64,000 nt of DNA from a bacterium (GTDB lineage: Bacteria; Bacteroidota; Ignavibacteria; UBA10030). Positions 4,301 through 60,920 of this stretch are shown here, piece by piece. Position 1 is the stretch's first letter; each line of letters starts with the position of its first letter. A model generated the notes under the pieces. That model saw only the letters and a list, made by a program, of their open reading frames with translations. It was not told where the DNA came from and ran no database searches. The translations under genes and the position numbers were made by a program. Where the stretch lies: NCBI GenBank assembly GCA_043803945.1, contig JAZDJN010000056.1, forward strand, positions 24,258-88,257, in the 5' to 3' direction.

Positions 4301-4388
4301 AACCTCTCAGCGCGGCCTGTCCAACAACAATTGAGGGAATTATCAACAATATAAGAACGAGTATTCCGAAATGATACCATGTCTTCAT
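1386..4388 (-). CDS. TonB-dependent receptor (CarboxypepD_reg N-domain, plug, beta-barrel), non-SusC type
   Basis: Signal peptide from MKTWYHF (ATG 4388, SD AAGGAG). CarboxypepD_reg-like LVGANVYLQGT...FSYIGY, plug LPDANAAEAIGRLPGVS and GIELFKALTPDKDADAIAGTVNL, barrel LSRPDY..GNPNLK, C-terminal FGVRVTL. Confidence 0.93.
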   Translation of the reverse strand: MKTWYHFGILVLILLIIPSIVVGQAALRGSVKDSLSEEMLVGANVYLQGTALGASTDIEGKFRIAGVPAGSYMLRFSYIGYKAKVVPITVTDKEMVINIELMPDNILEQEVVITAQLRGQMAAINQQISSNTIVNVVSEEKIKQLPDANAAEAIGRLPGVSILRSGGEANKVILRGLSDKFTTITIDGVKIPPTDPDSRGVDLSTISQGSLAGIELFKALTPDKDADAIAGTVNLVTKKAPMDRSVQADIKGDYNKLMNSAKQYDLSLRYGERFFDGQLGLQVLGNLENRIRSNEQTTTAYQDRYDMFPATYFISNFRLQFIDEIRKRDGAVIMLDYDTPDSGSVRLSANYNRTERDFTTFQRNYPTLNAGSTPVYYEARDREQQITTVNSSVRGENYLFGLKFNWGASFAQSLTDNPFDYYIDFTETIGRRDASGHVSSGMDIPLNFTLRSNPKLIIPFAVNNFAVAGIDSGISTYEKNREIEKTVYLDGGGGYVLGNLFSGELKLGGKYKHITRFKEASRLYAPYYLGGFAWQPKNLSGTRFNSFYQQYLANNLIRLPSFLDFLDSAPVSRNLFDKYLINPIMNKDAVHEWYVLNQNGRAASIEYYVDKTAELDYYDVTESITAAYIMNTLRIGQDVTFIAGVRMEQETNEYLSRFVPGTGSLGGFPTPSGDVKDTSTTFSQTVWLPNFHLAIRPTDYLQVRLAAYRALSRPDYNARLIKLYALGTGTVNNLFVGNPNLKVAKAWNYEVNASVYSNTLGLVSLSAYLKDITDAHHFLNGAGIVGRRFLDSLGIVWSTALTKGGYQLTVPYNSSAPTKVWGFEFEHQANLSFLPWYFQHLVLSYNFSLVRSETHLVTTMIDTTWTIQQSEFGEIRTPSYTNRIVDRVQKLEQQPEFFGNVTLGYEIGDFSARLSVFHQGEFNSRFSPGGLTDGITGSYSRWDLTVKHSVTPNIALLVSVSNLFDIEENSYTTNRVYEWTRLNTNQKYGLTMDFGVRVTL

Positions 4389-4451
4389 AATGGTGTACTC
4401 CTTAGTTAGAATTGTATAAGAACTCTCCAGTGACATTAGTTAGTTCATTGA

Positions 4452-16913: not shown

Positions 16914-17957
16914 TTATTTCTTTCTTGATCCGGCAATTTTCCTAACGCAGGTTTTGCATAGCACCAGCTTAGTCGGCAGAGTGATATGCTGATACACAAA
17001 CTCCTCCTTGTTTCTAAGATTTTCGAGCGTCAGATCAAATGCTTTTCGTCCCAATTCCGTCGTTGGTTGTTCAACATAACTCATCGGCGGTGAGAGAAAT
17101 TGATTCAAGCCGCTATTGCCAAAGCAGATGAGGTCAATATCGTCGGGGATTTTCAATCCCAATTCTTCCGCCGCACGATACACGCCCAGCGCTACAGGGA
17201 ACGTAACGGCGAAAATAAATTCCGGCATGCTGCCGGCCTCATACATTTTAATAAACCCGCGATAGCCATCATCTTCACTGAATCCTCCGAACGTAACCCA
17301 CTCCGGACGAAGAGAGACACCATTATCTTTTAACGAAGTTTCAAAGCCCTTAAACCGTTCTTTGCCGATATTTGTATGCTGATATCCGCCGATGTGCCCC
17401 AATTTTTTATACCCGATGCTGATGGCCTGTTCCGTTGCGGCATAGGCGCCGCCACGGTCATCGGCCACAACAGTGTTGAATCCTTTCAGGTTTACCACGC
17501 GATCCATAAAAATAATCGGGACTCCCATTTTCTTCACTGTCTCAAAAATCGAATAATCTTTCGTCTGCTGCGTGACCGAGACGATCATGCCATCGACACG
17601 CATGGAGAGCAGCGATTGAACGTGGCGCAATTCTTTCTCGACACTTTCCTGGGAAACGGTCAGAATGATTTCATAATTATTCTGAAATGCTGCGTCATAA
17701 ATAGACTCAATGACAGACGAAAAGAAGAAGTGGGCAATCTTAGGTACAATGAGCCCGATGGTATTGGTTTTCCGTGACGAGAGATTTCTTGCATGAAAAT
17801 TGGGGTAGTATCCCATATCGCGGGCAATTTTTTTCACCTTCTTTGCGGTAAGTTCGGAAATATCCGGGTGGCCGCGAAGCGCCTTGGATACGGTAACCTT
17901 TGTGACTCCAAGCTTCTTGGCAATATCACTCAACGTTACTTGAAATCCCTTTTTCAT
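16914..17957 (-). CDS. LacI-family transcriptional regulator
   Basis: VTLSDIAKKLGVTKVTVSKAL HTH, YYPNFHARNL hinge, RVDGMI, IPDDIDLICF, VEQP. Confidence 0.95.
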   Translation of the reverse strand: MKKGFQVTLSDIAKKLGVTKVTVSKALRGHPDISELTAKKVKKIARDMGYYPNFHARNLSSRKTNTIGLIVPKIAHFFFSSVIESIYDAAFQNNYEIILTVSQESVEKELRHVQSLLSMRVDGMIVSVTQQTKDYSIFETVKKMGVPIIFMDRVVNLKGFNTVVADDRGGAYAATEQAISIGYKKLGHIGGYQHTNIGKERFKGFETSLKDNGVSLRPEWVTFGGFSEDDGYRGFIKMYEAGSMPEFIFAVTFPVALGVYRAAEELGLKIPDDIDLICFGNSGLNQFLSPPMSYVEQPTTELGRKAFDLTLENLRNKEEFVYQHITLPTKLVLCKTCVRKIAGSRKK

Positions 17958-21217: not shown

Positions 21218-22462
21218 CTATTTCAATGCGCCCACGCGTTCAAGCTCAATAGCAGCCATGAGAAATGGCCCATACCCCTTAAAATCGTTTGTTCGTTTGG
21301 GCTCGCTGATATAATATTCAAAACTGCCATCACGGTACGGATTACCGCCAAGTCCGGAGACCTGGACGGTGTTATGCAAAAACACCATGCCTTGATCATC
21401 GACGGTGACAAACTCTTTGAGCATCGCATCGAAGAGTGCCTTTGCGGTGGTTTTGTATTTTGCACCAAGGTAGCCGTTGCTCGCGCCTTTGATAAACGCA
21501 TAGGTGAACATGGAGGAGGAGGAAGCTTCGAGATAATTCCCCTTCCGATTCCCTTGATCAACCACCTGATACCACAATCCGGTTTTGGAATCCCGGTAGC
21601 GCAAGAGTGTTTGCGAGAGCGTTTGAAGCTGTGTGATTAACTCGCCGCGAGAACGATGATTCCCTGGTAGATGATCGAGCACATCAACGAGTGCCATCAT
21701 GTACCAGCCAATGGCTCTTCCCCAGAAATTTGGCGATTGGCCCGTTTTCGGATTGGCCCATTGTTGCTGCTTGCTCTCATCCCAGCCATGATACAGCAGT
21801 CCTGTCTTTGGATCCCGGTTATGCTTCCAGATGAGCTGGAACTGTTTGGCAACATCATCGAGCGCAGATGGTTCTTTGAACATCACCGCATAGTGGGTGT
21901 AAAAAGGTTCTGCCATGTAAAGACCATCGAGCCACATTTGATACGGATAAATTTTCTTATGCCAGAAGCCGTTTTCGCTTGTGCGCGGGTGGTGCGCGAG
22001 CTGCTTGCGGAGTGTGTCAGCAGCAACTTTATATTTCAGATTGTTGGTGCGCCGGAAGAGCGTAAGCAATTGTCTTCCGGGAGGAATGTTGTCGAGATTA
22101 AAGCTCTCGTATTCATAGGTGTTGATCGAGCCATTCTCTTCAATGTAGAGATCGATGTTCTGCTTGATGAAGTTGAAATACTTTTCATCACCCGTCTTCT
22201 TCCACATCATCCGCATGGCTTCCAGCATCACGCCTTGTTCGTAATTCCATTTTCTGCTCTTTGCCTCTGTTCCGTACTTGATGGTATCGGGATTCGATTT
22301 CATGAAGGAAGCGGCTATGCGTACAGACCACGGAAGTGACCGATCGATAGCTTGTGCTGAAAGTGCCTGATGCAGTACAAGGTAAATCAAGAGCAGTGAT
22401 GCCACCCGCAACACGAGAGACGAGAGTGCGGATTGTGAAAAAGAGAATACGGTCTTCATCAT
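21218..22462 (-). CDS. Unsaturated rhamnogalacturonyl/galacturonyl hydrolase (GH105)
   Basis: WNYEQG, NLDNI, GFWHKKIYPYQMWLDGLYM, LLYHGWDE, FWGRAIGW, GNYLEAS, RDGSFEYY. Confidence 0.95.
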   Translation of the reverse strand: MMKTVFSFSQSALSSLVLRVASLLLIYLVLHQALSAQAIDRSLPWSVRIAASFMKSNPDTIKYGTEAKSRKWNYEQGVMLEAMRMMWKKTGDEKYFNFIKQNIDLYIEENGSINTYEYESFNLDNIPPGRQLLTLFRRTNNLKYKVAADTLRKQLAHHPRTSENGFWHKKIYPYQMWLDGLYMAEPFYTHYAVMFKEPSALDDVAKQFQLIWKHNRDPKTGLLYHGWDESKQQQWANPKTGQSPNFWGRAIGWYMMALVDVLDHLPGNHRSRGELITQLQTLSQTLLRYRDSKTGLWYQVVDQGNRKGNYLEASSSSMFTYAFIKGASNGYLGAKYKTTAKALFDAMLKEFVTVDDQGMVFLHNTVQVSGLGGNPYRDGSFEYYISEPKRTNDFKGYGPFLMAAIELERVGALK

Positions 22463-22465
22463 TTC

Positions 22466-24157
22466 TTATCTCACCAGAAGAAGTTTGCGTGATTGCGTTC
22501 TTCCCCGCGAAACCAGTTGAGCAATATAGACTCCGGATGCGACATTCCGCGACTGTGTGTCTTTTCCATCCCATCGAATGGTGTAGTGGCCCGCCGGTTG
22601 CTCCCTCTGCATCAGCTCTTTCACAAGCACCCCGCGAAGATCATAGATCCTGAGTGCCACAACGCCTTGTTTTGAGAGGGAGATAGAGATCAGCGTTTCT
22701 GGATTAAATGGATTGGGATAGTTTTGATAAAGAACAAAATCGGAAGGTACTGATCTCTCTATGCTCCCGGTCGTGGTGATCACGTTCCCGGTAACAAGGC
22801 TATTGAGATATTCTTCGAGTTTTGTATATCCTTGAGCATTTTTTAAATTCCGATCACCTGGATCGGCGGGATTGAGGCCCTGTGCCTGTTCCCATGCATC
22901 CGGCATACCGTCATGATCGGTATCCATGGGCGGTGGTGCAGTCGCCAGAAGAGGCCAGCCGCCGACATCACTTTGTGAATCGATAATTCCAGACCGTGCT
23001 CCGGTTTTTCCACCAAACAATGCCACTCCATTTTCTACTTCCCACACTATTCGTTTGTCGATCGTATCTCGTTTCGGCAGGCTCGCTCCACCATATTTAA
23101 GGACTAACCTATATGCTACTTCTGGTTGATGTTGAACAATTGGAGTGTATGGAAACGGCTCCGTTGCTTTGATAGAATCGAACAAACTGGTGGCTACACC
23201 CTGCACCCCAAAGGCCCAATTATCTGTAGTTGCCTGAGGATATCCATCCACATAATTCTCATTGATATACCATTTTCCATATCCATGGCTCTCTGTTGAT
23301 GGATTCACGATCCTATATCTCGTTGAACCACTACTCGTGGAAGGGCCTGCCTTGTAGTAATTTGCCACAACATTGATCCTGCTTGGCTGTACTTCATTTG
23401 CTTCACCACCGTAGCAACTGTTGAATGTCCAGTTATAAACAACATTATTACGGTGGTCTACATTTTCTACTCCACGATCGAAACGTGGATTACGACTCGA
23501 GTGATGAGCTAATAAGTTATGATGCCATGTAGTGTTCTTCCCACCCCAGATACCTCCATAGCCATGAGCACCTTTGACATGATGTGAGTTACGCAGACTC
23601 TCTGCAATGAAGCACCATTGAACGGTCCACTGTTCGATTCCGGAATAAGCACTCAACGTTTCATCAATCGACCAGCTGATTGAGCAGTGATCGAGGATCA
23701 CATTCTTAGAGTTCTCGCCATCAAATGCATCATCATCATAGGTAGAGTCGACATCGCCCAACCGGAATCGTAGATATCTGATTATTACTTCATTCGCCTT
23801 CACCGTGAAGTTAAAATCACGGAGACAAATTCCATCGCCAGGAGCTGATTGCCCTGCAATTGTTAGGTTTCCTCTCGTGACAGATAATCGCGATTTTAAT
23901 CGAATAGTACCTGAGACACGAAAGACTATTGTTCTGGGTCCAGTTTTACCAATGGCTTCGCGCAAGCTACCTGGTCCGCTGTCATTGAGATTTGTCACTT
24001 CATAGATATCGCCGCCGCGGCCTCCAACCGTATATTGACCAAATCCCTCAGCTCCCGGAAATGCTTTCTGCTGACTATGCGAGAGTGTAGCAGTCAGAAA
24101 AATGAATTTGAAACCGAATGCAATTACAGTGAATGTATGTTGAAGTCCAAAGTTCAC
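22466..24157 (-). CDS. Pectate lyase (PL1, Bacteroidota-type) with C-terminal T9SS/FlgD-like sorting domain
   Basis: AFPGAEGFG..GGRGG, DSGPGSLR, AGQSAPGDG, DHCSISWSIDE, HGYGGIWGG, RNPR, DTDHDGMPDAWE, then LYQNYPNPFNP...SGVY...KLLLVR. Start re-placed at GTG 24157, just after the upstream stop. Confidence 0.92.
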   Translation of the reverse strand: MNFGLQHTFTVIAFGFKFIFLTATLSHSQQKAFPGAEGFGQYTVGGRGGDIYEVTNLNDSGPGSLREAIGKTGPRTIVFRVSGTIRLKSRLSVTRGNLTIAGQSAPGDGICLRDFNFTVKANEVIIRYLRFRLGDVDSTYDDDAFDGENSKNVILDHCSISWSIDETLSAYSGIEQWTVQWCFIAESLRNSHHVKGAHGYGGIWGGKNTTWHHNLLAHHSSRNPRFDRGVENVDHRNNVVYNWTFNSCYGGEANEVQPSRINVVANYYKAGPSTSSGSTRYRIVNPSTESHGYGKWYINENYVDGYPQATTDNWAFGVQGVATSLFDSIKATEPFPYTPIVQHQPEVAYRLVLKYGGASLPKRDTIDKRIVWEVENGVALFGGKTGARSGIIDSQSDVGGWPLLATAPPPMDTDHDGMPDAWEQAQGLNPADPGDRNLKNAQGYTKLEEYLNSLVTGNVITTTGSIERSVPSDFVLYQNYPNPFNPETLISISLSKQGVVALRIYDLRGVLVKELMQREQPAGHYTIRWDGKDTQSRNVASGVYIAQLVSRGRTQSRKLLLVR

Positions 24158-24162
24158 ATGAA

Positions 24163-25704
24163 TCACCAGGGAATCTGATACGAGAGACTGGCAATAAGAT
24201 TGTTGCGAATTTCCCGATTGATACTTACGGCGTTTGACCACGTATCGATAAACTTCATATCAGAATACTCGTAGGTCACGTTTACGCGGAGGCTGGCAAT
24301 ATTCATTTCGCCGCCCAGAGAATAGACTGGATACTTAATCGGCTCTCCACGTATTGCCTTCGACAATGGTTGGAAGACTTCAGCATTTTCCGAGACCCCG
24401 CCTCGAACGATGAGCCATGAATTCGCTCGATACTGTGCTCCCGCGTGCCATAAGGAAGCGGAAAGCCAGGGATTGATTTCCTGGCCGCCGGCGTCGGTGT
24501 ACGTTGCCGATGAGTATGGACGAATTTCATATTCAATACCGATGGTAAAATCGGGACGCACTGCAATTGAAACTCCCAGTGATGCGCGAAGCGGAAGGTT
24601 GATTTTATCTTCGCCGCTGGATGAGGTGGTTGAACGGAAGTGAAGCGAATCAACCCGGGAGCTTAATTTGCTCACGGTAGTAACTGAGTCCAACGATGAT
24701 GATGAGGAAAATTTCCTTGTAATGACTGTCGGGGGCTTCACCGAGAATCCAGCCGTGAACGACTGGCCGGTGTACGTGCCGCCCAGTGTAAATTCCTTGC
24801 CGCTGTAATCCGATGTACCGGTTTTCGCATAGCTGAGCATCCCCTGCTTATCAAGGCGAAGCGAACTGGTAAAGAACAGCATTCTTCCGCGGCCGACCCG
24901 TACTTCACTATCGTCCGTGCTTCCTTCCAGAATCAACCCGCTGGCACCAAGTGAGAATTGATCGGAAAGAGCCACAGAGAGAGCAGCACCATAGCCTTTG
25001 ATTGACCCGTCGCGTTGCTGATAGTACTGGTACCACTGCGTAAGATAGGGATTCGCATTCAGACCGGATGTGGCAATCGTTCCGTTCAGCACCGAGAGAA
25101 CCGATGGAGAAAAGCAATTATTGTTCTGGTAATACCAATTGAGATTCGCGTATTCAACGAATCCGACTCCAAGTACCACCCGAACATCCTTCAGGGAAAA
25201 CGGTGCTGCGAGGAATGCTTGAACGGGGGCGCTGTTCGATTTCGACCGATTCCAGTTTGGCCCGAGGTTATCGAATGGCCGTTGAACCGAGTCGCTTTGA
25301 TCGATCACACGGACCTGTGTAGTGCCGTAAAACTTTGTCGTATCCGGATTACTGAGCAATCCTGTCGTACCCTCCACAAGGGGACTGAACGCCGAATGCG
25401 ATTGTATTCCACCGTAGCGCTGATCCTGTTTACTATAGGTCGATTGCTGCAAACCACCGAGGGATAATTGTAATCCTTGAAGCGAGCCTAGCATTGCCGG
25501 ATTTGAAAACATCAGGGAGGCATCGTTTTTTATTCCCAGCATGGTACCTCCTGCTGCGCGCGACGATACCGAAGGCGTTGTTGTACGATTCAATCCCTGC
25601 ATGGAAAGCGGGTTATCGTACCCTTGTGCAAATGCGTCCTGTCCAAGCACAAGACACAGACAGAACATTGCGAGATAGGCGATTGTGTTCTTTGGCTGTT
25701 TCAT
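24163..25704 (-). CDS. Outer-membrane beta-barrel protein, FadL/PorV-superfamily-like
   Basis: Signal peptide, SRAAGG...DASLMFSNPAML N-terminal hatch-like motif, alternating beta-strands, C-terminal ASLSYQIPW. Translationally coupled (TAATG) to the upstream gene. Confidence 0.65.
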   Translation of the reverse strand: MKQPKNTIAYLAMFCLCLVLGQDAFAQGYDNPLSMQGLNRTTTPSVSSRAAGGTMLGIKNDASLMFSNPAMLGSLQGLQLSLGGLQQSTYSKQDQRYGGIQSHSAFSPLVEGTTGLLSNPDTTKFYGTTQVRVIDQSDSVQRPFDNLGPNWNRSKSNSAPVQAFLAAPFSLKDVRVVLGVGFVEYANLNWYYQNNNCFSPSVLSVLNGTIATSGLNANPYLTQWYQYYQQRDGSIKGYGAALSVALSDQFSLGASGLILEGSTDDSEVRVGRGRMLFFTSSLRLDKQGMLSYAKTGTSDYSGKEFTLGGTYTGQSFTAGFSVKPPTVITRKFSSSSSLDSVTTVSKLSSRVDSLHFRSTTSSSGEDKINLPLRASLGVSIAVRPDFTIGIEYEIRPYSSATYTDAGGQEINPWLSASLWHAGAQYRANSWLIVRGGVSENAEVFQPLSKAIRGEPIKYPVYSLGGEMNIASLRVNVTYEYSDMKFIDTWSNAVSINREIRNNLIASLSYQIPW

Positions 25705-26738
25705 TAGAATCCCACTCCTAAGCTTATCCGATGGACATTTCCAAGGTTATAATTGAGCGCTCCGTAACTATAGTCGAAGGAAAATCGTGTTGCTCCAAGG
25801 CTCTGCTTAATGCCACAGCCCGCCGAAAATCCATCAGCATCATAATTAAATTTGTTGCCGACTCGAAGGGCAACCATTCCGGCAAATTCATATTCCATGC
25901 CAAGGTGTGCCTGTTGGGCATAATCATTGGGTTGAAAAAGATCGAACGCTACGCTGAAGCGGTTATCATCGCTCTCCATTAGAAGAGCGTTACGGCCCAT
26001 CAAGTCTGCAGCGATACCGGTACGGAGTGCCATCGGAATCGAATTTGATTCGGATGCATACTTGACGTTCGCGCCAAAATTCTGGACCGATGCCGCGAGT
26101 TGAACCGACCGGAATCCGGTGTTATACCGCAAACCGAAATCAAAGAGAACACCGTTTGCCCAGGTCTTTACTTCTTCAGCGACACCTTTACTATTAACCG
26201 CCATAACTTGCCCTCCATCATAGAGAGACTCATGAGCATACTTGACAGTCAATCCGGTAGCGAACTTATCGGTAATCTCCTGTGCGTAACTCAGGCCGAT
26301 CAGATAGGCGAACGGGCGAAAGGTCTTTCCCGTCAATCCGGGAAACTCGATATCATCCTTGTAGGGTGATGTCCAGAGCGCTTCTTGAATTTCTCCAAAG
26401 TCCACGTATTGAACCTGGAGCCCGACGGATCCGAGAGAACCAAGCGAGGTTGCGAACGAGAGTGCTCCCTGTCGCGTATCAAAAATCCAATTCAGGTATG
26501 TCAGAGAAATCTCACGATCTCTCGATAAGGCAACGCCGGCTGGATTCCAGAACACCGCTTCTGCGCCTGTTGCCCAGACACTGTATGCATCACCCAATGC
26601 GGTCGCTCGTGCACACGGCATAACCTTTAAAAATTGCATGGAACTGCTACCGACCTTTTGCGAAAATGCCATCGGTGAGGACAATAAGATCGCAAACATC
26701 GGCAAGAGGTATAGTGTAATTTTCTTCATCGCTCTCAT
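25704..26738 (-). CDS. PorV/PorQ-family outer-membrane protein
   Basis: QFLKVMPCARATALGDA, AVFWNPAG, DFGLRY, QNFG, GMEY, DYSY, HRISLGVGF. Start re-placed at MRAMKK (26738, SD AAGGA). Confidence 0.88.
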   Translation of the reverse strand: MRAMKKITLYLLPMFAILLSSPMAFSQKVGSSSMQFLKVMPCARATALGDAYSVWATGAEAVFWNPAGVALSRDREISLTYLNWIFDTRQGALSFATSLGSLGSVGLQVQYVDFGEIQEALWTSPYKDDIEFPGLTGKTFRPFAYLIGLSYAQEITDKFATGLTVKYAHESLYDGGQVMAVNSKGVAEEVKTWANGVLFDFGLRYNTGFRSVQLAASVQNFGANVKYASESNSIPMALRTGIAADLMGRNALLMESDDNRFSVAFDLFQPNDYAQQAHLGMEYEFAGMVALRVGNKFNYDADGFSAGCGIKQSLGATRFSFDYSYGALNYNLGNVHRISLGVGF

Positions 26739-26748
26739 GTCCTTTATT

Positions 26749-29106
26749 TCAATGAATGATGACAAATTTACCTGTTGCCCGGGTTCCTTCATCAAGATCT
26801 TCTACAACGTAGAAGTACACTCCGGCGGCAATACGCTGACTATTTCGCGAAATCTGAAACCACTCATGCGAATAGACATTTGCCGTATGCTCAATTGTTC
26901 CAACCAGTTGTCCGCTATAGGAGAAAATCCGAATCACCGCATTCTTCGGCAGGCCATAAAATCCGATCTTATCGTTAATGTCCCCTTCTTTGGTTGATCC
27001 TCCAAAACTGCTGGAGAGAATGAGCGGATTCGGAGCAACATAAATTTTTCCACCCAAGTGTTCTACCGCCCCTTTTTGTGTTGAGTGGTAGGTAATATTG
27101 GTGTATCCACTCTTCCCGCCAACAGAATCGACAGAAAGAACACAGTAGTAATAGTTCTCGCTTAAAAGACTCTGCGTGTCCTTGAAGACATACATATCGG
27201 GATATTTTTCATCTTTGTTGTAATAGCGCGGATCTCGTATCCCGACACTGTCCAGCCGTGTCCAGGGGCCTAATCCATCTGGTGATTTCATGACGAGGTA
27301 GTGACTTAATCCGGAGCGAATTCTGCCAAGAGCCGCTGCTGCTTTAATAGCCGGCATCGAGGTGAAGCTTTCAACCTGCGGTCCCCAAACGATTTTATTC
27401 TTGACATCCGCCGCATCATAAACATTCAAGACAGGCGCGGGAAATGGTATATGGATCTTGGATACACCATACAAGCCGGTCGCGGGAGAATTTTCCGGTT
27501 TAAATTGAACTGCATCATAGTCAACCAGCGGTCCGCCGGTATAGATCTGAATGGCTCTATCAGCAACGTCACGCAGAGAAATGACCGGGGATGGATCGAC
27601 ATTCGAGATTTTTCCTGCAACATACCAGGGAAGTTTATGGGCATTGTTTTTCAAATAGGCGCTTCCCATGTAGTTGATGCCCGATAAGCCCGAGAGGCCG
27701 GGGTAGGTAAGCGAATCATACCAGGAGATCACCGGCTCATAATATGCTGTCGACGATGAGAACGCTCCCCCCGCATCCCGGTAGACCGTGTCTGCCGCAG
27801 TACCGGGTCCGTACCCGACGAGCGTGGCAATTGCAAACTTGAGGTGTTTCCCCCTGGGAAACACATAGGGTCCGAACGATGTATAGTGCATCGATGTTTG
27901 TGTATAGTTGCCGGAGGAGAGAGCTCTCGGTTTTGCACGGCCCTGCCAGTAATTCATGAGTTCGAGATTCACGGCAGGATTTTGTGCTATCGACGGTCCA
28001 TAGTACGTTGCCCAATTTACTGAATCTGTTTTGACGGTACTCGTTGTTGATTTGAAATCAAACGACGTGTAGGGACGGGAGGAGAGTGTCAGTCCGTACG
28101 CAATAGCCCGCGAGGCACTTAAATCGACGTTTCTGTTCGGTACTTGTTGAGCCGTATAAGGCTGTAAAAATTTGCCATTCTGATCCCACGCGCGAGCAGT
28201 ATCCGTGAGTGTATAGCTTGTCATGCTCTTGGGCTGTAAATTTTCATAATCATAATGGAGCACCATCAATCCCACACCTTGTGGTGAATTCAATCCGCCG
28301 CGATTACCCTCAGTCGACCAGGCATTAAAGTATGTCGGATCGGGAAATCCATCTCTGCTGTGCACATACAACATGTACCGGGTAAAATTATAACGTCCAT
28401 ACACTTCACGCGCGCGGGTCGTTACAGAAGACTCGTTCCAGACACCATACCTTCTCTGTATTCCTAACGCCGAAGGGCAGAGACCATTGAAAAACATCAC
28501 CATTCCGTCGGTATAATCCACAGCATCGGTGTTGACGATATCGTATTCAATAATAATGAATGCATCGTACCCGGGAAAACTCCATGCGCGGCTGGTTTGA
28601 GTAATCAAAAGTTTCATCGGGTTCGTGGTGGTATACTGTGTGACAATGATTTCTTCAGCCTCATTAGGATTGTATGCAGTATTGAGGCTGCCATCTGCTA
28701 ATAAAGGGTAGTTTTCCGTTCGGGTAATACTCCCGGGAATAGAGTATATACCTGCAATTGTTGTCGCATTGCCGGATCCGTCGGTAATTCCACCGCATGC
28801 TTTCGCAACATAGGTGCCGTTAATCTTTGCCTGAAACAGGATGCCGCCTCCGAAAGAATTCTGATGCCCCCAGTACACAATCTGATTCAGCGTTTGTCGT
28901 GAATTGGGGGGCCACTCCAGGGAAGAGGTCCCCTCCGGCAGACCGACCGTCGTCGAATTGCTGGCTTCAGTAGCTCTTCCTATCTCCCCGGTGTTGTAAA
29001 TCGTCTGGCGCACCATGCTGCGCGTATGCGTCTTGAAATCGCGCTGCGATACGGCAAGAGACGAAACCAGGGCCATCATGAGAAAAATATATACGAGATG
29101 TTTCAT
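26749..29106 (-). CDS. Large secreted hypothetical protein with T9SS-type C-terminal domain
   Basis: Signal peptide MKHLVYIFLMMALVSSLAVSQ (ATG 29106, SD AGGA). FN3-like YYYCVLSVD, C-terminus IYVAPNP...IRIFSYSGQLV...AAGVYFYVV...GKFVIIH. No recognisable catalytic family. Confidence 0.8.
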   Translation of the reverse strand: MKHLVYIFLMMALVSSLAVSQRDFKTHTRSMVRQTIYNTGEIGRATEASNSTTVGLPEGTSSLEWPPNSRQTLNQIVYWGHQNSFGGGILFQAKINGTYVAKACGGITDGSGNATTIAGIYSIPGSITRTENYPLLADGSLNTAYNPNEAEEIIVTQYTTTNPMKLLITQTSRAWSFPGYDAFIIIEYDIVNTDAVDYTDGMVMFFNGLCPSALGIQRRYGVWNESSVTTRAREVYGRYNFTRYMLYVHSRDGFPDPTYFNAWSTEGNRGGLNSPQGVGLMVLHYDYENLQPKSMTSYTLTDTARAWDQNGKFLQPYTAQQVPNRNVDLSASRAIAYGLTLSSRPYTSFDFKSTTSTVKTDSVNWATYYGPSIAQNPAVNLELMNYWQGRAKPRALSSGNYTQTSMHYTSFGPYVFPRGKHLKFAIATLVGYGPGTAADTVYRDAGGAFSSSTAYYEPVISWYDSLTYPGLSGLSGINYMGSAYLKNNAHKLPWYVAGKISNVDPSPVISLRDVADRAIQIYTGGPLVDYDAVQFKPENSPATGLYGVSKIHIPFPAPVLNVYDAADVKNKIVWGPQVESFTSMPAIKAAAALGRIRSGLSHYLVMKSPDGLGPWTRLDSVGIRDPRYYNKDEKYPDMYVFKDTQSLLSENYYYCVLSVDSVGGKSGYTNITYHSTQKGAVEHLGGKIYVAPNPLILSSSFGGSTKEGDINDKIGFYGLPKNAVIRIFSYSGQLVGTIEHTANVYSHEWFQISRNSQRIAAGVYFYVVEDLDEGTRATGKFVIIH

Positions 29107-29137
29107 TTGGGATTCCTGCATAATGGTAAATGATTTT

Positions 29138-32131
29138 TCAAAATTCAAATGACAGTCCGACAAAGAACGATCGCGGTGCATTATCGTACAGCAGGAACGA
29201 GTGATCCACGGCGAACGCGCCTCCAAGATTCTGATCATCCCAGTAGAGTACGCCATTATTCGGATCATTGAATGCATAAGTGGAGTACCTCCGAGTAGCC
29301 TCATTCTGATCAATCTTGTTCGCCGTATTGAACAAATACGAATAGTTGAAAATTTTAGTGCTGAACAAATTAAACACTTCGACATAGAGCGTTGCAGAGA
29401 CCCCGATGAGGTTTTTCATAGCCTTCGAAACTCGGAGATTTGTGTTATATTCAGTCGGTGAACGAAGGCCGTTCACGTCGCTCGCATCATCGGGCGAAGT
29501 GTAAGGACGTCCGCTGCGGCCAAACGAATTGATCGAGATGACCATGCTTTCTAAAGGATGGAGACCTCCTATGTCGGGACCGAATTGCTCAGGCGTCATG
29601 TATGCAATATTGACGATGACATTGTGCGTCCGGTCAAAGTTCAACAGCACATCCTTGATCGGAACTTTCGACACCACATCCGTCGAAATGACACCTGAGA
29701 GATTCTTAGTAATTGCCATGGGAGCGTTCGACGAGGAAGAGCTCTTTCCAGTCGCCACGCTGAATTGATAGTTGATCGATCCTGTAATGGCACCTCTCCT
29801 TTTTGCCAGTGAGACCCGGAAACCACGAACGTCTGCGTAGTCTCTATTAAAGAAGGAGTAGTAGCTTGTACCAGTCGAAAGGTTTGTGAAGACCGCTTGT
29901 TCGATCAGATCCTTGATGTCTTTGTAATAGCCGCTGACATCAAGTGTAAATCCCGCATCTAATCCTTGCATGAGACCGATATCGTACTGATTCGTCACCT
30001 GCGGCTTGAGCCTCGGATTGCCCAGGCTTGAGACCGAAGCAGGAGATGGCGGGGGCGGCATTTTCTGTGTCGAGCCGATGACATTTTGAAATGAGGGCCG
30101 CTGCATAAACGTTCCATAGTTCAGGTGGAAGACTGTCCCCACCGAAACGGGAAATGAAACACCGACGCGAGGCTGCAGCCGGGCAATGGGTTTGGATTTT
30201 ACTTTTGGAGCCAGGTTGGCGTCATAGTTCAGCGTCGGTCTGCCCAATGAATCGCGCAGGACGAATGGATCGAACTCATCGAAATAGTACTCATTATTGG
30301 AGTCCCACACATCCCAGCGCATGCCGACATTGGCAATCATCCCCTCGAATTCCATCTTATCCTGAACGTAGAGTCCCAGTTCATAGGGCTGTCCTGTATA
30401 TTTTGTTACTGAGATGCTGCCCTTCGATTTGATATTCCCCACATTATCGCGGCTAATTTCATAATAGTTCGCCTGAATACCCGTATTGAGGAGATGGGAC
30501 TTCGTCACCTGACTGGTAATCGATGCATCCAGGGATGCAGTAAAAGTTTTATCATTGGTAAAATTACCCAGAGTATTTGCGAGGTAAAAGAATGTCTTAC
30601 CGACCATGTTCTGGTAGTACATGAAATTCATCTCTCGAGTAATAATAGCCGTGCCGGTTTCTGTATTGCGTACCTGATCAGAGACCGTGTCGTACCACGG
30701 AGACGTACCCAGCCTGTTTGTTGTCCGCAGAGTGTTCAATTTAATTTCATAGAAGGTGCTCGGACTGACCGCCTGCGTAAACCGGGCTCCAAGCTGAAGG
30801 TTGGTTCGTTCCTGATACGCGATTCCCAGAATCCTGTCCCAGGTCCATTGATAGAATCCTGTTCCGCCTCCTAAGATATTGTCAAATTCGTACTGATAGC
30901 CGCCGCTCAGTCTGAGTGCGGCACTCGCACCCAGGTCGAATACAATATTTCCCATCACCTGTTGCTGCTTGTTCGGCTCTTCAGTCATAACGATGGAATT
31001 GTCATTCTCCGAGCGAAGGGCGAGAAAAGCCGTTACCCCTGAGGCGAGCGGACCGCCGAAGGCGCCTTCAATACTATAGTCAATTTGCGATTTCCAGTAT
31101 TTGCTGTTCAAGTCTTTTGCTGTCGCACTTTTCCAAAGAGTCTGTGCAGCCTGGAGCATGACCGTCGAATCACCGCCGAAGTCCGAAGCAGTCCATCCAA
31201 GAATCGATTTATATCCTGTTGTTGCATCTCCATTCTTCCAGAAGTTCGGATCGGCAAGCTTTTGGAGGTAGGGCTGTGCGTTTTCGTCGTAGACGCTGGG
31301 GCCGAAATATTTTAACCCGGGTGCTCGCGCCCGCACCTCAAACTTCGAACGCCATTTATCCGACTTTCCTTCTTTCATGGTTATGTTGACCACACCCGAT
31401 TGTGCATTTCCATACTGGGCGCCAAAACCGCTGGTAATCACCTCTACTTCTTCGACAGCGCTCATAATTGGTCTGAAGGCGGCGGAGGCATCGAGCGGAT
31501 TTGTGATTCCCATGCCCTGTAACATGTAATACTCTTCATTGGCGCGGCCGCCGCGAAAGTGACCGTCGGTAATATCTGCCGCTAAACCAATAACATCGTT
31601 CACGTCCCTCATACCCGCGAGCGCCTGCACTTCATCACCGCGGATGATTGTACTCGTGGACGTTTTTTCCCGTTCCACATCCGGGCGTGTTGCCTGAATG
31701 ATCACCGCTTCCTTCTCAACCGCTGATGATTTCAATTTGAAGTCTGCGTTGGTGGTTCGTCCGGAATTTACGATAAGGTCACGCTGGACAACTTTTTCAT
31801 AACCGATGATGGAAGCCTGCAGGTCGTACTTCCCGGGCGGGATATTGAGAATAAAGTAGGTTCCTTCCACGTCTGTCACTGCTCCCAGTTTTGTACCGAG
31901 GAGCATGACATTCGCACCAATCAACGATTCTCCAGTATCAGCATCCTTAATGCTTCCCGACAACTTTCCGGCAGTTTGCGCCGTCAACATATTCAACGCA
32001 AAAAGAACCAGGAGAACAACACTGAAAATCTTAATGACTCTCCATGGTAATACTTGAGGTTGTACATACGATGGCTGCAATTTTTTCTTGCACCCCGCAT
32101 GCACTGATTGCAGGTAAGGATTCTTTGTCAT
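29138..32131 (-). CDS. TonB-dependent receptor (Ignavibacteria/Calditrichaeota-like type, non-SusC)
   Basis: GKLSGSIKDADTGESLIGANV...IPPGKYDL N-domain, HFRGGR, EVITSGFGAQYGNAQSGVVN plug, YVQDKMEF, LQPRVGVSFP, GNPRLKP, C-terminal APRSFFVGLSFEF. SD AAGGAG. Confidence 0.93.
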   Translation of the reverse strand: MTKNPYLQSVHAGCKKKLQPSYVQPQVLPWRVIKIFSVVLLVLFALNMLTAQTAGKLSGSIKDADTGESLIGANVMLLGTKLGAVTDVEGTYFILNIPPGKYDLQASIIGYEKVVQRDLIVNSGRTTNADFKLKSSAVEKEAVIIQATRPDVEREKTSTSTIIRGDEVQALAGMRDVNDVIGLAADITDGHFRGGRANEEYYMLQGMGITNPLDASAAFRPIMSAVEEVEVITSGFGAQYGNAQSGVVNITMKEGKSDKWRSKFEVRARAPGLKYFGPSVYDENAQPYLQKLADPNFWKNGDATTGYKSILGWTASDFGGDSTVMLQAAQTLWKSATAKDLNSKYWKSQIDYSIEGAFGGPLASGVTAFLALRSENDNSIVMTEEPNKQQQVMGNIVFDLGASAALRLSGGYQYEFDNILGGGTGFYQWTWDRILGIAYQERTNLQLGARFTQAVSPSTFYEIKLNTLRTTNRLGTSPWYDTVSDQVRNTETGTAIITREMNFMYYQNMVGKTFFYLANTLGNFTNDKTFTASLDASITSQVTKSHLLNTGIQANYYEISRDNVGNIKSKGSISVTKYTGQPYELGLYVQDKMEFEGMIANVGMRWDVWDSNNEYYFDEFDPFVLRDSLGRPTLNYDANLAPKVKSKPIARLQPRVGVSFPVSVGTVFHLNYGTFMQRPSFQNVIGSTQKMPPPPSPASVSSLGNPRLKPQVTNQYDIGLMQGLDAGFTLDVSGYYKDIKDLIEQAVFTNLSTGTSYYSFFNRDYADVRGFRVSLAKRRGAITGSINYQFSVATGKSSSSSNAPMAITKNLSGVISTDVVSKVPIKDVLLNFDRTHNVIVNIAYMTPEQFGPDIGGLHPLESMVISINSFGRSGRPYTSPDDASDVNGLRSPTEYNTNLRVSKAMKNLIGVSATLYVEVFNLFSTKIFNYSYLFNTANKIDQNEATRRYSTYAFNDPNNGVLYWDDQNLGGAFAVDHSFLLYDNAPRSFFVGLSFEF

Positions 32132-32221: not shown

Positions 32222-33763
32222 TTATTTTGAATTTCTCGAACTCGATTGATAGGTTAGACGAACATTGATCATCGTCAAGTCTTTGACATTCTCGAGCACA
32301 TTCGGTTCGGCAACATTGTTGAAGGTGCAATTCTCCAGGGAAATTTTCGTTGCCGGAGAGCGATCGTAGGCCCGGATCCAAATACCAAATCGACTTTTGC
32401 TGCAAACCACATTTCTGACATCAATATTGCGGACGATGGGGGTAAAATTCCCCTTCTCTCCTTCTTCATAATAGAAATCAATTTTTACCACAGCTTCAGC
32501 AACCTGCCCGACAGTTACGTTTCGCATATAAATATTCTCGATCACTCCGCCGCGTACGGCATTCGTCTTAATCCTAAGCACCCTATCGAGATTGGGACTG
32601 TCCATGGAACAATCTTCTGCATAAACATTCCTGACACCGCCACTTATTTCACTGCCGATAACCACACCGCCATGGCCATTCTTCATGAAACATCCCTGGA
32701 TGATAATGTTCTTGCTGGGAGCATTCACCCGCCTGCCATCGTTGTTTCTGCCCGATTTGATGGCGATACAATCATCACCATTGTTGAACTTGCAATTCTT
32801 GATGAGAACGTCCGTGCAGGATTCCGGATCGCAGCCATCGTTGTTCGGACCCTGGCCTTCTGTCGTTACACCGAGAATTGTAACATTCCGACATAACACA
32901 GGGTGAAGAAACCACATCGGTGAATCCTTAAACGTCACACCCTCGACCAGCACATTCTTACAGCGTACTGGCGTAAAAAAATTGGGGCGCAGATATGAGC
33001 CTTCGCCGAACACCCTCTGCGGTACCGGAACACCCTCTTCTCCCATTGCCCCCAGTTTTTTGCGGGCTTCATTTTGATTCTGTTTGTTCGCGCCGGTTTC
33101 CTTACTCCCTTTCCAACTCCACCAGTTTTCAACTGCACCCTGACCGTCGAGAATTCCTTTTCCCGTAACAGCAATATTCTCCTGCTCGAACGCATAAATC
33201 AATGCCGAATAATTCATGCATTCGATTCCTTCCCAACGAGTAAAGACCAACGGGAGATACTTTTGGGATTCGGTGCTGAATTTGAGAATTGATCCTTCTG
33301 CGAGATGAAGATTGACATTACTTTTCAGGTGTATCGAACCGGTGAGATAGACTCCTTTCGGAATCACCACACGGCCTCCCTTTTCTTTTGAACACTTCTC
33401 GATTGCTTGTGCTATCGCCGCACTGCAATCTGTGACACCATCTCCCTTAGCACCGAATGCGGTGATCTCATAATCTTTTTTGGGAAACACTGGAGCAGTA
33501 ATACGCTTGAGGATCGCCGGAACGACATCCCACCCCTGCAGTTTCGAACTGTGCTGCTGCGCTTGGAGCGGAATCAGGAAAACAAGGGAGAGAAGAAGAG
33601 AAAGAAGAAGGGAGAGCACATGGATTGGGATTGTTGAATGGGTGTGCGGGATGTGGAATGTTTTCATCTCCGCAGTACACCAACGTATTGTATTTGGTTT
33701 CTCGGTCATTGATGGTAAGACGCTGAAATTGTGCAACGGATAAAAATGTTTTACTCGGATCAT
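32222..33763 (-). CDS. Glycoside hydrolase family 28 (exo-polygalacturonase-like)
   Basis: FGAKGDG, GVYLTGSIHLKSNVNL, TRWEG, PNNDGCDPES, GDDCIAIKSG, GHGGVVIGSE, RIKTN. Exact start uncertain. Confidence 0.95.
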   Translation of the reverse strand: MIRVKHFYPLHNFSVLPSMTEKPNTIRWCTAEMKTFHIPHTHSTIPIHVLSLLLSLLLSLVFLIPLQAQQHSSKLQGWDVVPAILKRITAPVFPKKDYEITAFGAKGDGVTDCSAAIAQAIEKCSKEKGGRVVIPKGVYLTGSIHLKSNVNLHLAEGSILKFSTESQKYLPLVFTRWEGIECMNYSALIYAFEQENIAVTGKGILDGQGAVENWWSWKGSKETGANKQNQNEARKKLGAMGEEGVPVPQRVFGEGSYLRPNFFTPVRCKNVLVEGVTFKDSPMWFLHPVLCRNVTILGVTTEGQGPNNDGCDPESCTDVLIKNCKFNNGDDCIAIKSGRNNDGRRVNAPSKNIIIQGCFMKNGHGGVVIGSEISGGVRNVYAEDCSMDSPNLDRVLRIKTNAVRGGVIENIYMRNVTVGQVAEAVVKIDFYYEEGEKGNFTPIVRNIDVRNVVCSKSRFGIWIRAYDRSPATKISLENCTFNNVAEPNVLENVKDLTMINVRLTYQSSSRNSK

Positions 33764-60812: not shown

Positions 60813-60920
60813 ACGTCTAATTCCTTTAGGATAGAGTTGAAGAAGAATGCATAGGCATCGTACGGCCTGGCGGCCGCAAATAAAGGGGAAATAAATCATT
60901 CATGTAATCCCCTCATAAAT

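Follow-up and report, generated by a model that had tools for sequence, protein, structure and literature searches.

We analysed a stretch of 64,000 nt (hereafter the window, with positions counted from its first letter) from the genome of an Ignavibacteria member of the UBA10030 lineage (GenBank assembly GCA_043803945.1, contig JAZDJN010000056.1, positions 24,258 to 88,257 of the forward strand), in which a pectin locus contains a cassette of five genes. The cassette comprises a TonB-dependent receptor, a secreted protein of 785 residues (785 aa) that ends in a type IX secretion system (T9SS) C-terminal domain (CTD), an outer-membrane barrel of the PorV/PorQ family, a further barrel and a pectate lyase; the first three make up the triad of receptor, middle protein and barrel with which this work is mainly concerned. 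A first-pass annotation, made from the letters alone, had placed five packed, co-oriented genes here; the list of open reading frames (ORFs) confirmed their number and places, and family matches were obtained. These genes and their principal co-oriented neighbours are as follows.

32222..33763, minus strand: GH28 enzyme of polygalacturonase/galacturonidase type (Pfam GH28), first gene of the co-oriented run
29138..32131, minus strand: TonB-dependent receptor, non-SusC, with a CarboxypepD_reg-like N-terminal domain (PF00593, PF13715)
26749..29106, minus strand: secreted 785-aa protein with a signal for signal peptidase I (SPI), a predicted beta-supersandwich, an Fn3 domain and a cassette-type T9SS CTD (AlphaFold2 fold, CTD models)
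25704..26738, minus strand: private outer-membrane barrel of the PorV/PorQ family (NF033709)
24163..25704, minus strand: fourth gene, a 513-aa barrel of FadL/BamG type (AlphaFold2 and Foldseek)
22466..24157, minus strand: PL1-type pectate lyase with a type A T9SS CTD (PelZ model, TIGR04183)
21218..22462, minus strand: unsaturated uronyl hydrolase of GH88/GH105 type, which degrades lyase products (PF07470, 370.7 bits)
16914..17957, minus strand: LacI-family regulator (PF00356 and Peripla_BP families), end of the co-oriented run

The receptor gene is separated by 31 nt from the gene of the 785-aa protein, which is followed after 10 nt by the ATG of the PorV-like gene at 26738; a TAATG stop/start overlap at 25704 joins the PorV-like and FadL-like genes, and ~5 nt lie between the latter and the probable GTG of the PL1 gene at 24157. 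The positions 26738 (PorV-like) and 24157 (PL1) are likely to be the actual starts, rather than those of the longest ORFs. A scan of the window returned 28 promoter-like sites (25.7 expected) and 16 terminator-like sites (17.2 expected), that is, no more than chance would give. Of these, a promoter-like site at 33926-33898 and a hairpin at 16729-16706 (minus strand, a match to consensus only) may bound a single long transcription unit. The base composition of the region was not unusual. In all five cassette proteins the predicted signal peptide ends right before a glutamine (AVS-Q, AFS-Q, AFA-Q, LTA-Q and SHS-Q), which fits the ‘Q-rule’ reported for SPI substrates of Bacteroidetes, a rule that the abstract of the same source says does not hold across the whole Fibrobacteres–Chlorobi–Bacteroidetes (FCB) group (PMC5837995).

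The receptor (997 aa) matched the TonB barrel family in the Pfam scan (PF00593, 83.2 bits) and carries an N-terminal extension of the CarboxypepD_reg-like type (PF13715, 64.6 bits, residues 57-145). As had been noticed from the letters, SusC signatures are absent from it: the score on TIGR04056 was 44 bits against a cut-off of 368.25, confined to residues 56-169, and TIGR04057 was unmatched at E <=0.01, as was Pfam Plug. Comparison of its sequence with solved chains retrieved no TonB-dependent transporter and only carboxypeptidase D, through the N-terminal domain. A second TonB-dependent receptor of the window (1386-4436, minus strand) matched Pfam Plug (54.8 bits) and has a CarbopepD_reg domain; it is preceded by genes of 6PGD, Lar_N and PfkB type, and whatever comes after it is close to the edge of the window or past it.

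The gene after the cassette receptor is indeed no SusD lipoprotein gene: no SusD family of Pfam was found in the 785-aa protein at E <=0.01, the predicted fold is a beta-supersandwich with a fibronectin type III (Fn3) domain, and the signal peptide holds no cysteine (the N-terminus, read by eye, is MKHLVYIFLMMALVSSLAVSQ). No Pfam family exceeded its cut-off in this protein, no enzyme family of Pfam or NCBIfam was matched, and PF18962 was unmatched in the Pfam scan. The tail alone gave sub-threshold matches, to CHU_C (PF13585, 20.9 bits, cut-off 27), to TIGR04183 (19.5 bits, cut-off 23) and to the C-terminus of PorZ (E 2e-7).

The gene that follows encodes a barrel of the PorV/PorQ family (NF033709, 203.4 bits with a cut-off of 90; profile positions 2-326 aligned to residues 51-363) that stays under the equivalog cut-offs of both PorV (NF033710, 68.3 against 250) and PorQ (NF033711, 103.6 against 220); a profile of its family, run against solved chains, found Flavobacterium johnsoniae PorV alone (E 6e-18). 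To place this barrel and its neighbours in their genome (5.54 Mb in 118 contigs, 100% complete by tool figure), 12,354 ORFs of at least 80 aa were searched with the five proteins. The barrel family had 26 matches, 18 of them over the cut-off, and thirteen paralogs of the receptor head other cassettes, receptor and barrel paralogs sharing contigs. Counting only runs of receptor, one gene and barrel on a single strand gives 13 strict triads, so that the triad is conserved within this genome, and there is one reordered copy on contig C87, in which the barrel comes directly after the receptor and the homolog of the 785-aa protein lies three genes upstream of the receptor. Four members above the cut-off remain: the housekeeping PorV, one of two tandem genes on contig C34, and single genes on contigs C54 and C95. 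The housekeeping PorV (NF033710, 308 bits against 250) lies beside PorU (1000.8 bits) on contig C87, with the true BamG a few genes away, which excludes the window barrel as the sole housekeeping PorV; the idea of a locus-specific PorV paralog thus stands, the window barrel being one of the 18 copies.

The housekeeping cluster itself (C87:348000-367999, L026) runs BamG (274.6 bits), GlgA, PorU, a 124-aa ORF and PorV, and continues with an inactivated, T9SS-dependent metalloprotease of M6-like type (830 bits) and a propeller protein resembling TolB. The tandem pair on contig C34 (C34:50051-51903, L027:6052-7904; 78 and 134 bits) stands outside the receptor cassettes and adjoins a generic-CTD protein and a gene of the FemAB family (PEP-CTERM-associated type).

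The middle proteins of the triads are 633-1264 aa long, and no Pfam family was found at E <=1e-4 in the 13 that were scanned (12 from triads and the reordered homolog). Those of the other cassettes are unrelated in sequence and occupy the identical position. The genes around the cassettes vary as well: PL6; heparinase II/III with a 3-keto-disaccharide hydrolase; GH95, GH88, GH29, GH97 and an alginate lyase; GH94 with two glycoamylase-type enzymes and CTD proteins bearing carbohydrate-binding modules; NamZ with deacetylases; and M19 and M28 peptidases with a gamma-glutamyl transpeptidase. Regulators of LacI or GntR type often adjoin them. This layout is that of polysaccharide utilisation loci (PULs), with the triad in place of SusC/SusD. 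Downstream of the cassette on contig C81 (L013:16257-18098) lie a ThsB-like TIR protein (a weak match, 23.8 bits) and an N6/N4 DNA methylase, which may form a small defence islet.

SusC/SusD itself is scarce in this genome. SusD_RagB gave one sub-threshold match (20.5 bits) and SusD-like_3 none, and only two receptors passed the SusC model (496 and 390 bits), both with TIGR04057. The 496-bit SusC is followed by a 509-aa protein (together L028:3479-8131, that is, C9:9478-14130) that had no sequence match in Pfam, NCBIfam or the PDB; a protein atlas puts it among SusD/RagB clusters, with a feature score of 0.98 and a structural TM-score of 0.65-0.91 to clusters partly named SusD. The genome therefore holds at least one divergent SusC/SusD-like pair beside some 14 triads and is not wholly free of SusD. 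The 390-bit SusC, on contig C2 (L029:3480-7811), precedes a 476-aa protein that has no family match and is possibly a second divergent SusD-like partner.

The tails of the middle proteins provided a way of telling the cassettes from ordinary T9SS cargo. Two CTD models were built, one from the C-terminal 110 residues of the middle proteins of the 13 triads and a generic one from 118 cargo CTDs of the same genome, and a leave-one-out test was used to avoid circularity of the former. With its own sequence held out of the cassette model (leaving 12), every one of the 13 triad tails reached 58-117 bits, compared with 7-26 bits on the generic model; for the 785-aa protein the two scores were 101 and 15 bits. 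For the generic cargo CTDs, the cassette model gave no more than 41 bits (median 19.6), and the generic model, of which they are part, no less than 81. The homolog at the reordered locus, which was held out, followed the cassette pattern (72 bits, and 7 on the generic model), the CTD of PorU was among the nearest outsiders to the cassette class (44 and 53 bits), and that of the window PL1 lay on the generic side (34 and 111 bits). The middle proteins of the triads thus carry a CTD class of their own, distinct from the generic cargo CTD. In related loci, all 62 of the 62 homologs of the 785-aa protein that are embedded in a cassette scored 90-117 bits on the cassette model. Three homologs that have no PorV-like neighbour (L040, L062 and L082) did not match it and scored 94-131 bits on the generic model, the receptor also being missing at L062 and L082; a body of the 785-aa type that lacks the private barrel and the receptor thus carries a generic tail.

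An interface between barrel and CTD, which the first-pass annotation had proposed to seek by structure prediction, was indeed predicted. The complex was modelled from barrel residues 26-344 (alignment of 30 rows) and residues 552-785 of the 785-aa protein (alignment of 37 rows), and the interface score ipSAE was 0.93 in three runs, against 0.00 for the best of three controls. At least 97% of the contacts agree between runs, the predicted local distance difference test (pLDDT) score of the partner is at least 88, and the contacts fall mainly on CTD residues 687-785. The mark applied is reached by 116 of 157 solved complexes and by 2 of 215 mismatched pairs, counts that are only rough here because our own alignments were supplied. 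On the predicted structure, the private barrel probably holds the tail of the 785-aa protein.

We also asked how the parts diverge together among the 13 paralogous cassettes (Mantel-type permutation test). The Spearman correlation was r 0.20 (p 0.11) for barrel and tail, r 0.34 (p 0.016) for barrel and receptor, r 0.38 (p 0.005) for receptor and tail, and r 0.44 (p 0.002) for receptor and partner body. Correlations as weak as these fit duplication of the unit as a whole.

The relatives of the 785-aa protein in other genomes allowed the same layout to be sought outside this organism. At least 381 homologs were found (E <=0.001, best 8000 candidates scored), and those listed bear no functional name, being called ‘hypothetical’ or ‘T9SS C-terminal target domain-containing protein’; the protein atlas likewise puts the body in unnamed clusters only, commonest in Zixibacteria, Fidelibacterota, Gemmatimonadota, Ignavibacteriota and Balneolota. 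Eighty loci with such relatives, one genome per species, were then scored with models built from the cassette parts of our genome. The neighbourhood proved conserved: where the contig left room, the receptor stands directly upstream in 77 of 79 loci (one locus being cut), the PorV-like barrel lies downstream in 62 of 65, and after it comes the FadL-like barrel in 60 of 63 (61 barrels on the first pass plus L081, with a gap of ~0.9 kb; 58 FadL-like genes plus L081 and L085 on inspection). By record title, the loci come from Ignavibacteria/Ignavibacteriales, KSB1, Calditrichia, Rhodothermales, ‘Zhuqueibacter’ and many metagenome-assembled genomes (MAGs) labelled ‘Bacteroidota bacterium’; the labels Synechococcus, Acidobacteriota and Chitinophaga on a few of them look like binning errors. 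To see how widely the barrel family occurs, 151 genomes from the phylum (completeness at least 90%) were sampled, with up to 13 candidates of each scored; the figures are thus capped, and they are matches rather than copy numbers. In the same class, 29 of 36 genomes have at least 9-14 matches and the other 7 have 3-5, and families f15 and f19 (19 genomes) have at least 2-6.

These data bear on the possibility that the PorV-like barrel is only a dedicated export shuttle, after whose action the 785-aa protein would be released or attached elsewhere, with no standing receptor complex and with a linkage that reflects mere co-regulation. A cognate barrel beside the cargo gene is a known T9SS arrangement (PMC10202324, in its accessible part), the predicted interface would suit a transient shuttle as well as a permanent dock, and barrel and CTD show weak co-divergence. 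The receptor, however, is linked to the middle protein more tightly than the varying enzymes are, not only in the related loci but also in 13 of the 14 copies of our own genome, and the homologs that use the general pathway have exchanged their tail for a generic CTD and are found without the barrel and, at two of the three loci, without the receptor. We therefore consider a mere shuttle unlikely.

What the barrel would hold was examined by structure prediction. The AlphaFold2 model of the 785-aa protein (37 sequences; mean pLDDT 70.5, predicted TM-score 0.74, 138 residues below 50) resolves into a putative supersandwich (residues ~20-546), an Fn3 domain (~552-678) and the cassette-type CTD (~687-785). 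Foldseek with the whole model matched only tandem Fn3 structures in the PDB, and the supersandwich was found only by a wide VIA-align search, a tool for which a shared fold shows no function. The best match of the body was the N-domain of dextran dextrinase (9ju0, Z 16.9, root-mean-square deviation 3.5, 259 residues aligned), followed by the N-domains of GH94 phosphorylases (Z 14.7-15.8; 4zle at Z 15.8, the alignments of 9ju0 and 4zle covering 255-259 residues), the GH15 glucoamylase 1lf6 (Z 14.6) and GH65 enzymes (Z ~12); residues 552-678 matched Fn3 domains at Z ~10-11. The supersandwich is thus of the kind seen as the non-catalytic N-domain of GH94, GH15 and GH65 enzymes.

The same fold could nevertheless be that of a lyase, esterase or epimerase for polyuronates, an enzyme at the surface from a family not yet described, instead of a binder or lid; such an enzyme might still be docked. 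Its body also matched the alginate lyase 3a0o (Z 10.5) besides the lyase and mutarotase-like folds discussed below, the homologs share many invariant Arg, Glu, His, Trp and Tyr columns, and the loci of the subfamily are concerned with uronates (pectin in the window, lyases of PL6 and heparinase type at two paralogs). The best matches (Z 14-17), on the other hand, are to non-catalytic domains, and the catalytic (alpha/alpha)6 domain that accompanies these is absent; no known enzyme family was recognised in the sequence, and the middle proteins of the other cassettes, unrelated in sequence, take the identical position, as would be expected of substrate-specific binders. On balance we judge an enzyme at this place distinctly unlikely.

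The fourth gene is a barrel of a different kind. Its sequence fell short of Toluene_X (FadL/OMPP1/TodX, PF03349; 25.5 bits against a gathering threshold of 29.7) and far short of BamG (NF053685, 42.6 bits against an equivalog cut-off of 250). Its AlphaFold2 model (pLDDT 84.4), searched with Foldseek, matched a Pseudomonas aeruginosa FadL homologue (3dwo, E 1.9e-16) and the BamG chains of three structures of the Bacteroidota BAM complex, the machinery that assembles beta-barrels (9hiv_F, 9n2d_B and 9hjm_F; E 6e-16 to 3e-14, TM-score by target 0.67-0.69). An assignment as a second PorV-like barrel was rejected, as PorV (8gl6_F) was matched at E 1.8e-5 only and FadL and BamG far better. The genome's true BamG is on another contig (C87). 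Within the genome, the FadL-like gene occurs in 3 of 14 cassettes, only in those with a homolog of the 785-aa protein as the middle protein, and it hence belongs to that subfamily rather than to all triads.

Since both small barrels are members of the FadL superfamily, they could be plain FadL-type diffusion channels for small products or hydrophobic compounds, with the CTD protein as ordinary cargo. Such a reading is very improbable: the distinct CTD class tracks the presence of the barrel, the PorV-like profile finds PorV rather than transport FadLs, docking is predicted with confidence, and a channel for hydrophobic compounds would have no evident role in 14 glycan or peptide loci.

The last gene of the cassette and the genes around it tell of the substrate. 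The PL1 protein is, by sequence, a clear homolog of PelZ and not an equivalog (E 2.5e-43, residues 46-451 over 402 profile positions, 148.5 bits against an equivalog cut-off of 840; PF00544 16.8 bits against 24), and its CTD is of type A (TIGR04183, 34.1 bits against a cut-off of 23). The suggestion that the private barrel might hold this lyase too found no support, since its tail is of the generic class and marks it as ordinary cargo of the general pathway. Immediately before the receptor, the GH28 gene scored 117.5 bits on Pfam GH28 and matched the alpha-D-galacturonidase model of NCBIfam at E 1.4e-110, under its equivalog cut-off. That this is a pectin locus was borne out by flanks with GH28, GH88/105, CE8, UxaC, UxaE, KdgK-type kinases and LacI; the rest of the window amounts to a full pathway for pectin and arabinan, with CE8, two GH28, GH88/105, an SGNH esterase, UxaC and UxaE, and further with PfkB kinases, SDR, MFS, LacI, GH51, GH106, GH127, GH2 and GH3 genes. 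In a 1584-aa ORF of this part (56145-60899, minus strand), GH2 domains are joined to a catalytic domain of GH127 (beta-L-arabinofuranosidase) and an F5/8 type C domain; either the fusion is an unusual one or two genes have been read together.

The pectin context recurs beyond the window. A homolog of the window GH28, GH105, CE8 or PL1 is present in 53 of the 80 related loci, many of them truncated, and homologs of the GH88/GH105 and LacI genes recur across them; GH28 comes directly before the receptor in 25 of the 57 loci with room, and the gene after the FadL-like barrel encodes a generic-CTD protein in 38 of 54, and a PL1 in only one by the thresholds used. Fourteen loci were sampled for a Pfam scan of their flanks, 99 proteins in total, with L106 covered in part, the other 13 wholly, and L083 and L102 omitted; GH28, CE8, PL9-type helices, GH88/105, KduI or DUF4861 appeared in 12 of the 14 flanks, or pectin-type families in 13 if L036 is counted, which qualifies only through our custom PL1 model; the flank of L100 has heparinase- and alginate-lyase-type genes instead. 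The two paralogous cassettes of the 785-aa type in our own genome adjoin PL6 and a heparinase II/III-type gene. Neighbours of pectin, PL6 and heparinase type indicate that the 785-aa subfamily goes with uronate-rich polymers, and the window copy with pectin.

Taken together, these results lead us to a reading that we hold with somewhat better than even confidence, namely that the window contains the uptake core of a pectin (polygalacturonate) utilisation locus that is built unlike SusC/SusD and whose 785-aa partner is docked by a private barrel. The PL1 lyase, and probably other generic-CTD enzymes, would leave through the general T9SS and cut pectin outside the cell. The 785-aa protein would also be exported by the T9SS, its specialised CTD not being passed to the sortase and staying docked in the adjoining PorV/PorQ-like barrel, as PorU does on PorV and PorZ on PorQ. 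Docking would tether the supersandwich and Fn3 domain, as a putative glycan-binding module, at the surface beside the TonB receptor, which would import oligogalacturonides that GH28, GH105 and the Uxa/Kdu/Kdg enzymes would finish in the periplasm and cytoplasm, and the FadL/BamG-type barrel may serve as a second platform or as an assembly helper of the complex.

Several points weigh against this reading. The physical link of the 785-aa protein or of the barrels to the receptor is putative. The comparison that reveals the tail swap comprises three MAG loci, one of which, L040, is truncated upstream and has its ORF split, and the training set of the cassette CTD model includes the 785-aa protein and two close paralogs. 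The model of the 785-aa protein is of moderate confidence only, given its mean pLDDT and the residues below 50, and its supersandwich occurs in enzymes as well, with matches to the PL26 lyase 5xq3 (Z 11.6) and to mutarotase-like proteins (~10.5). A complex of PorV with a CTD has already been solved (8gl6, substrate-bound PorV), so that the docking result may reflect likeness to 8gl6 rather than specificity of the window pair, and the weak co-divergence of the parts among the 13 cassettes reveals no clear specificity code between barrel and tail. Finally, a SusC with a SusD-like neighbour is present in the genome, and the triad was thus not forced by loss of SusD.

In light of known systems, the cassette combines features that are otherwise found apart. 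Akin to SusC/SusD (RagA/RagB), it appears to set a TonB transporter with a CarboxypepD_reg-type N-domain directly before a surface partner, and the pair is repeated many times per genome in loci of carbohydrate-active enzymes with a local regulator. It differs in that its receptor falls far below the SusC model (44 bits, against 368), in that its partner has a predicted supersandwich and Fn3 domain with an SPI signal and a T9SS CTD, whereas SusD is an alpha-helical tetratricopeptide-repeat protein with a lipid anchor, and in that the unit has one or two extra barrels.

A precedent for the docking comes from Porphyromonas gingivalis, in which PorU, its CTD retained, remains on PorV, and PorZ likewise uses its retained CTD to bind PorQ (PMC10202324, accessible part). 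The CTD in the window resembles the PorZ C-terminus and its barrel belongs to NF033709, retention here being proposed on a predicted interface; the differences are that there are 14 private barrels, under the PorV and PorQ cut-offs and beside TonB receptors, and that the docked protein is not secretion machinery. The same text suggests that cognate PorV-like barrels may shield CTDs against cleavage, type B cargo with PorP/SprF being the case in point. With that arrangement (SprB/SprF of F. johnsoniae) the cassette shares a cargo gene that adjoins its own PorV-like barrel and a CTD that is probably uncleaved, and the 785-aa CTD has the weak CHU_C match; unlike it, the window barrel matches the PorV/PorQ family, with no PorP/SprF model among the matches listed, and the link to a TonB receptor is not part of the type B system. 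As for the fourth barrel, BamG is described as a FadL homologue and a platform for a surface lipoprotein in the BAM complex of Bacteroidota (PMC12578637, accessible part), and the model of the fourth gene matches BamG about as well as FadL, while the protein itself is locus-specific, ~100 residues longer and well under the BamG cut-off.

We found no description of such a triad (TonB receptor, CTD protein, PorV-like barrel) in the openly readable full-text literature, and the accessible portion of a 2026 review of glycoside transporters (PMC13543919) does not mention PorV, T9SS, type IX or Ignavibacter. The Caldithrix genome paper, in the sections available, mentions TonB receptors for B12 and thiamine only, and the accessible text of the Melioribacter roseus genome paper (PMC3534657) gives Mros0761-0759, in a starch operon, as SusC, SusD and SusE; these three genes may instead be a triad of receptor, CTD protein and PorV-like barrel. 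The triad is thus a widespread and apparently undescribed counterpart of the SusC/SusD of gut Bacteroides. New in the present work are the leave-one-out separation of the tails, the tail swap in free-standing homologs, the conservation of the four-gene pectin unit across lineages, the FadL/BamG nature of the fourth barrel, the generic status of PL1 and the divergent SusD-like protein in the genome. The window copy has a clear substrate context, and a pectin locus kept over several lineages eases the design of binding and growth tests.

More tentatively, and with confidence that falls a little short of even, we propose that many FCB lineages other than Bacteroidia, among them Ignavibacteria, KSB1, Calditrichia and Rhodothermales, depend for glycan uptake mainly on an undescribed machine, in which a TonB transporter would work with a substrate-specific binder that is delivered by the T9SS and held for good by its own PorV/PorQ-like barrel via an uncleaved class of CTD, with a BamG-like fourth subunit in the polyuronate subfamily. 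Such a machine would be a lipoprotein-free and evolutionarily independent counterpart of SusC/SusD, and would put T9SS parts to a second use, a structural one. PULs are found and counted by their SusC/SusD pairs; if the proposal is true, surveys keyed to SusD miss most of the glycan-uptake capacity of these lineages (here some 14 cassettes, against one or two SusC/SusD-like pairs), the expanded PorV/PorQ paralogs would gain a role, and docking of the PorU-PorV and PorZ-PorQ kind would extend from secretion to nutrient capture.

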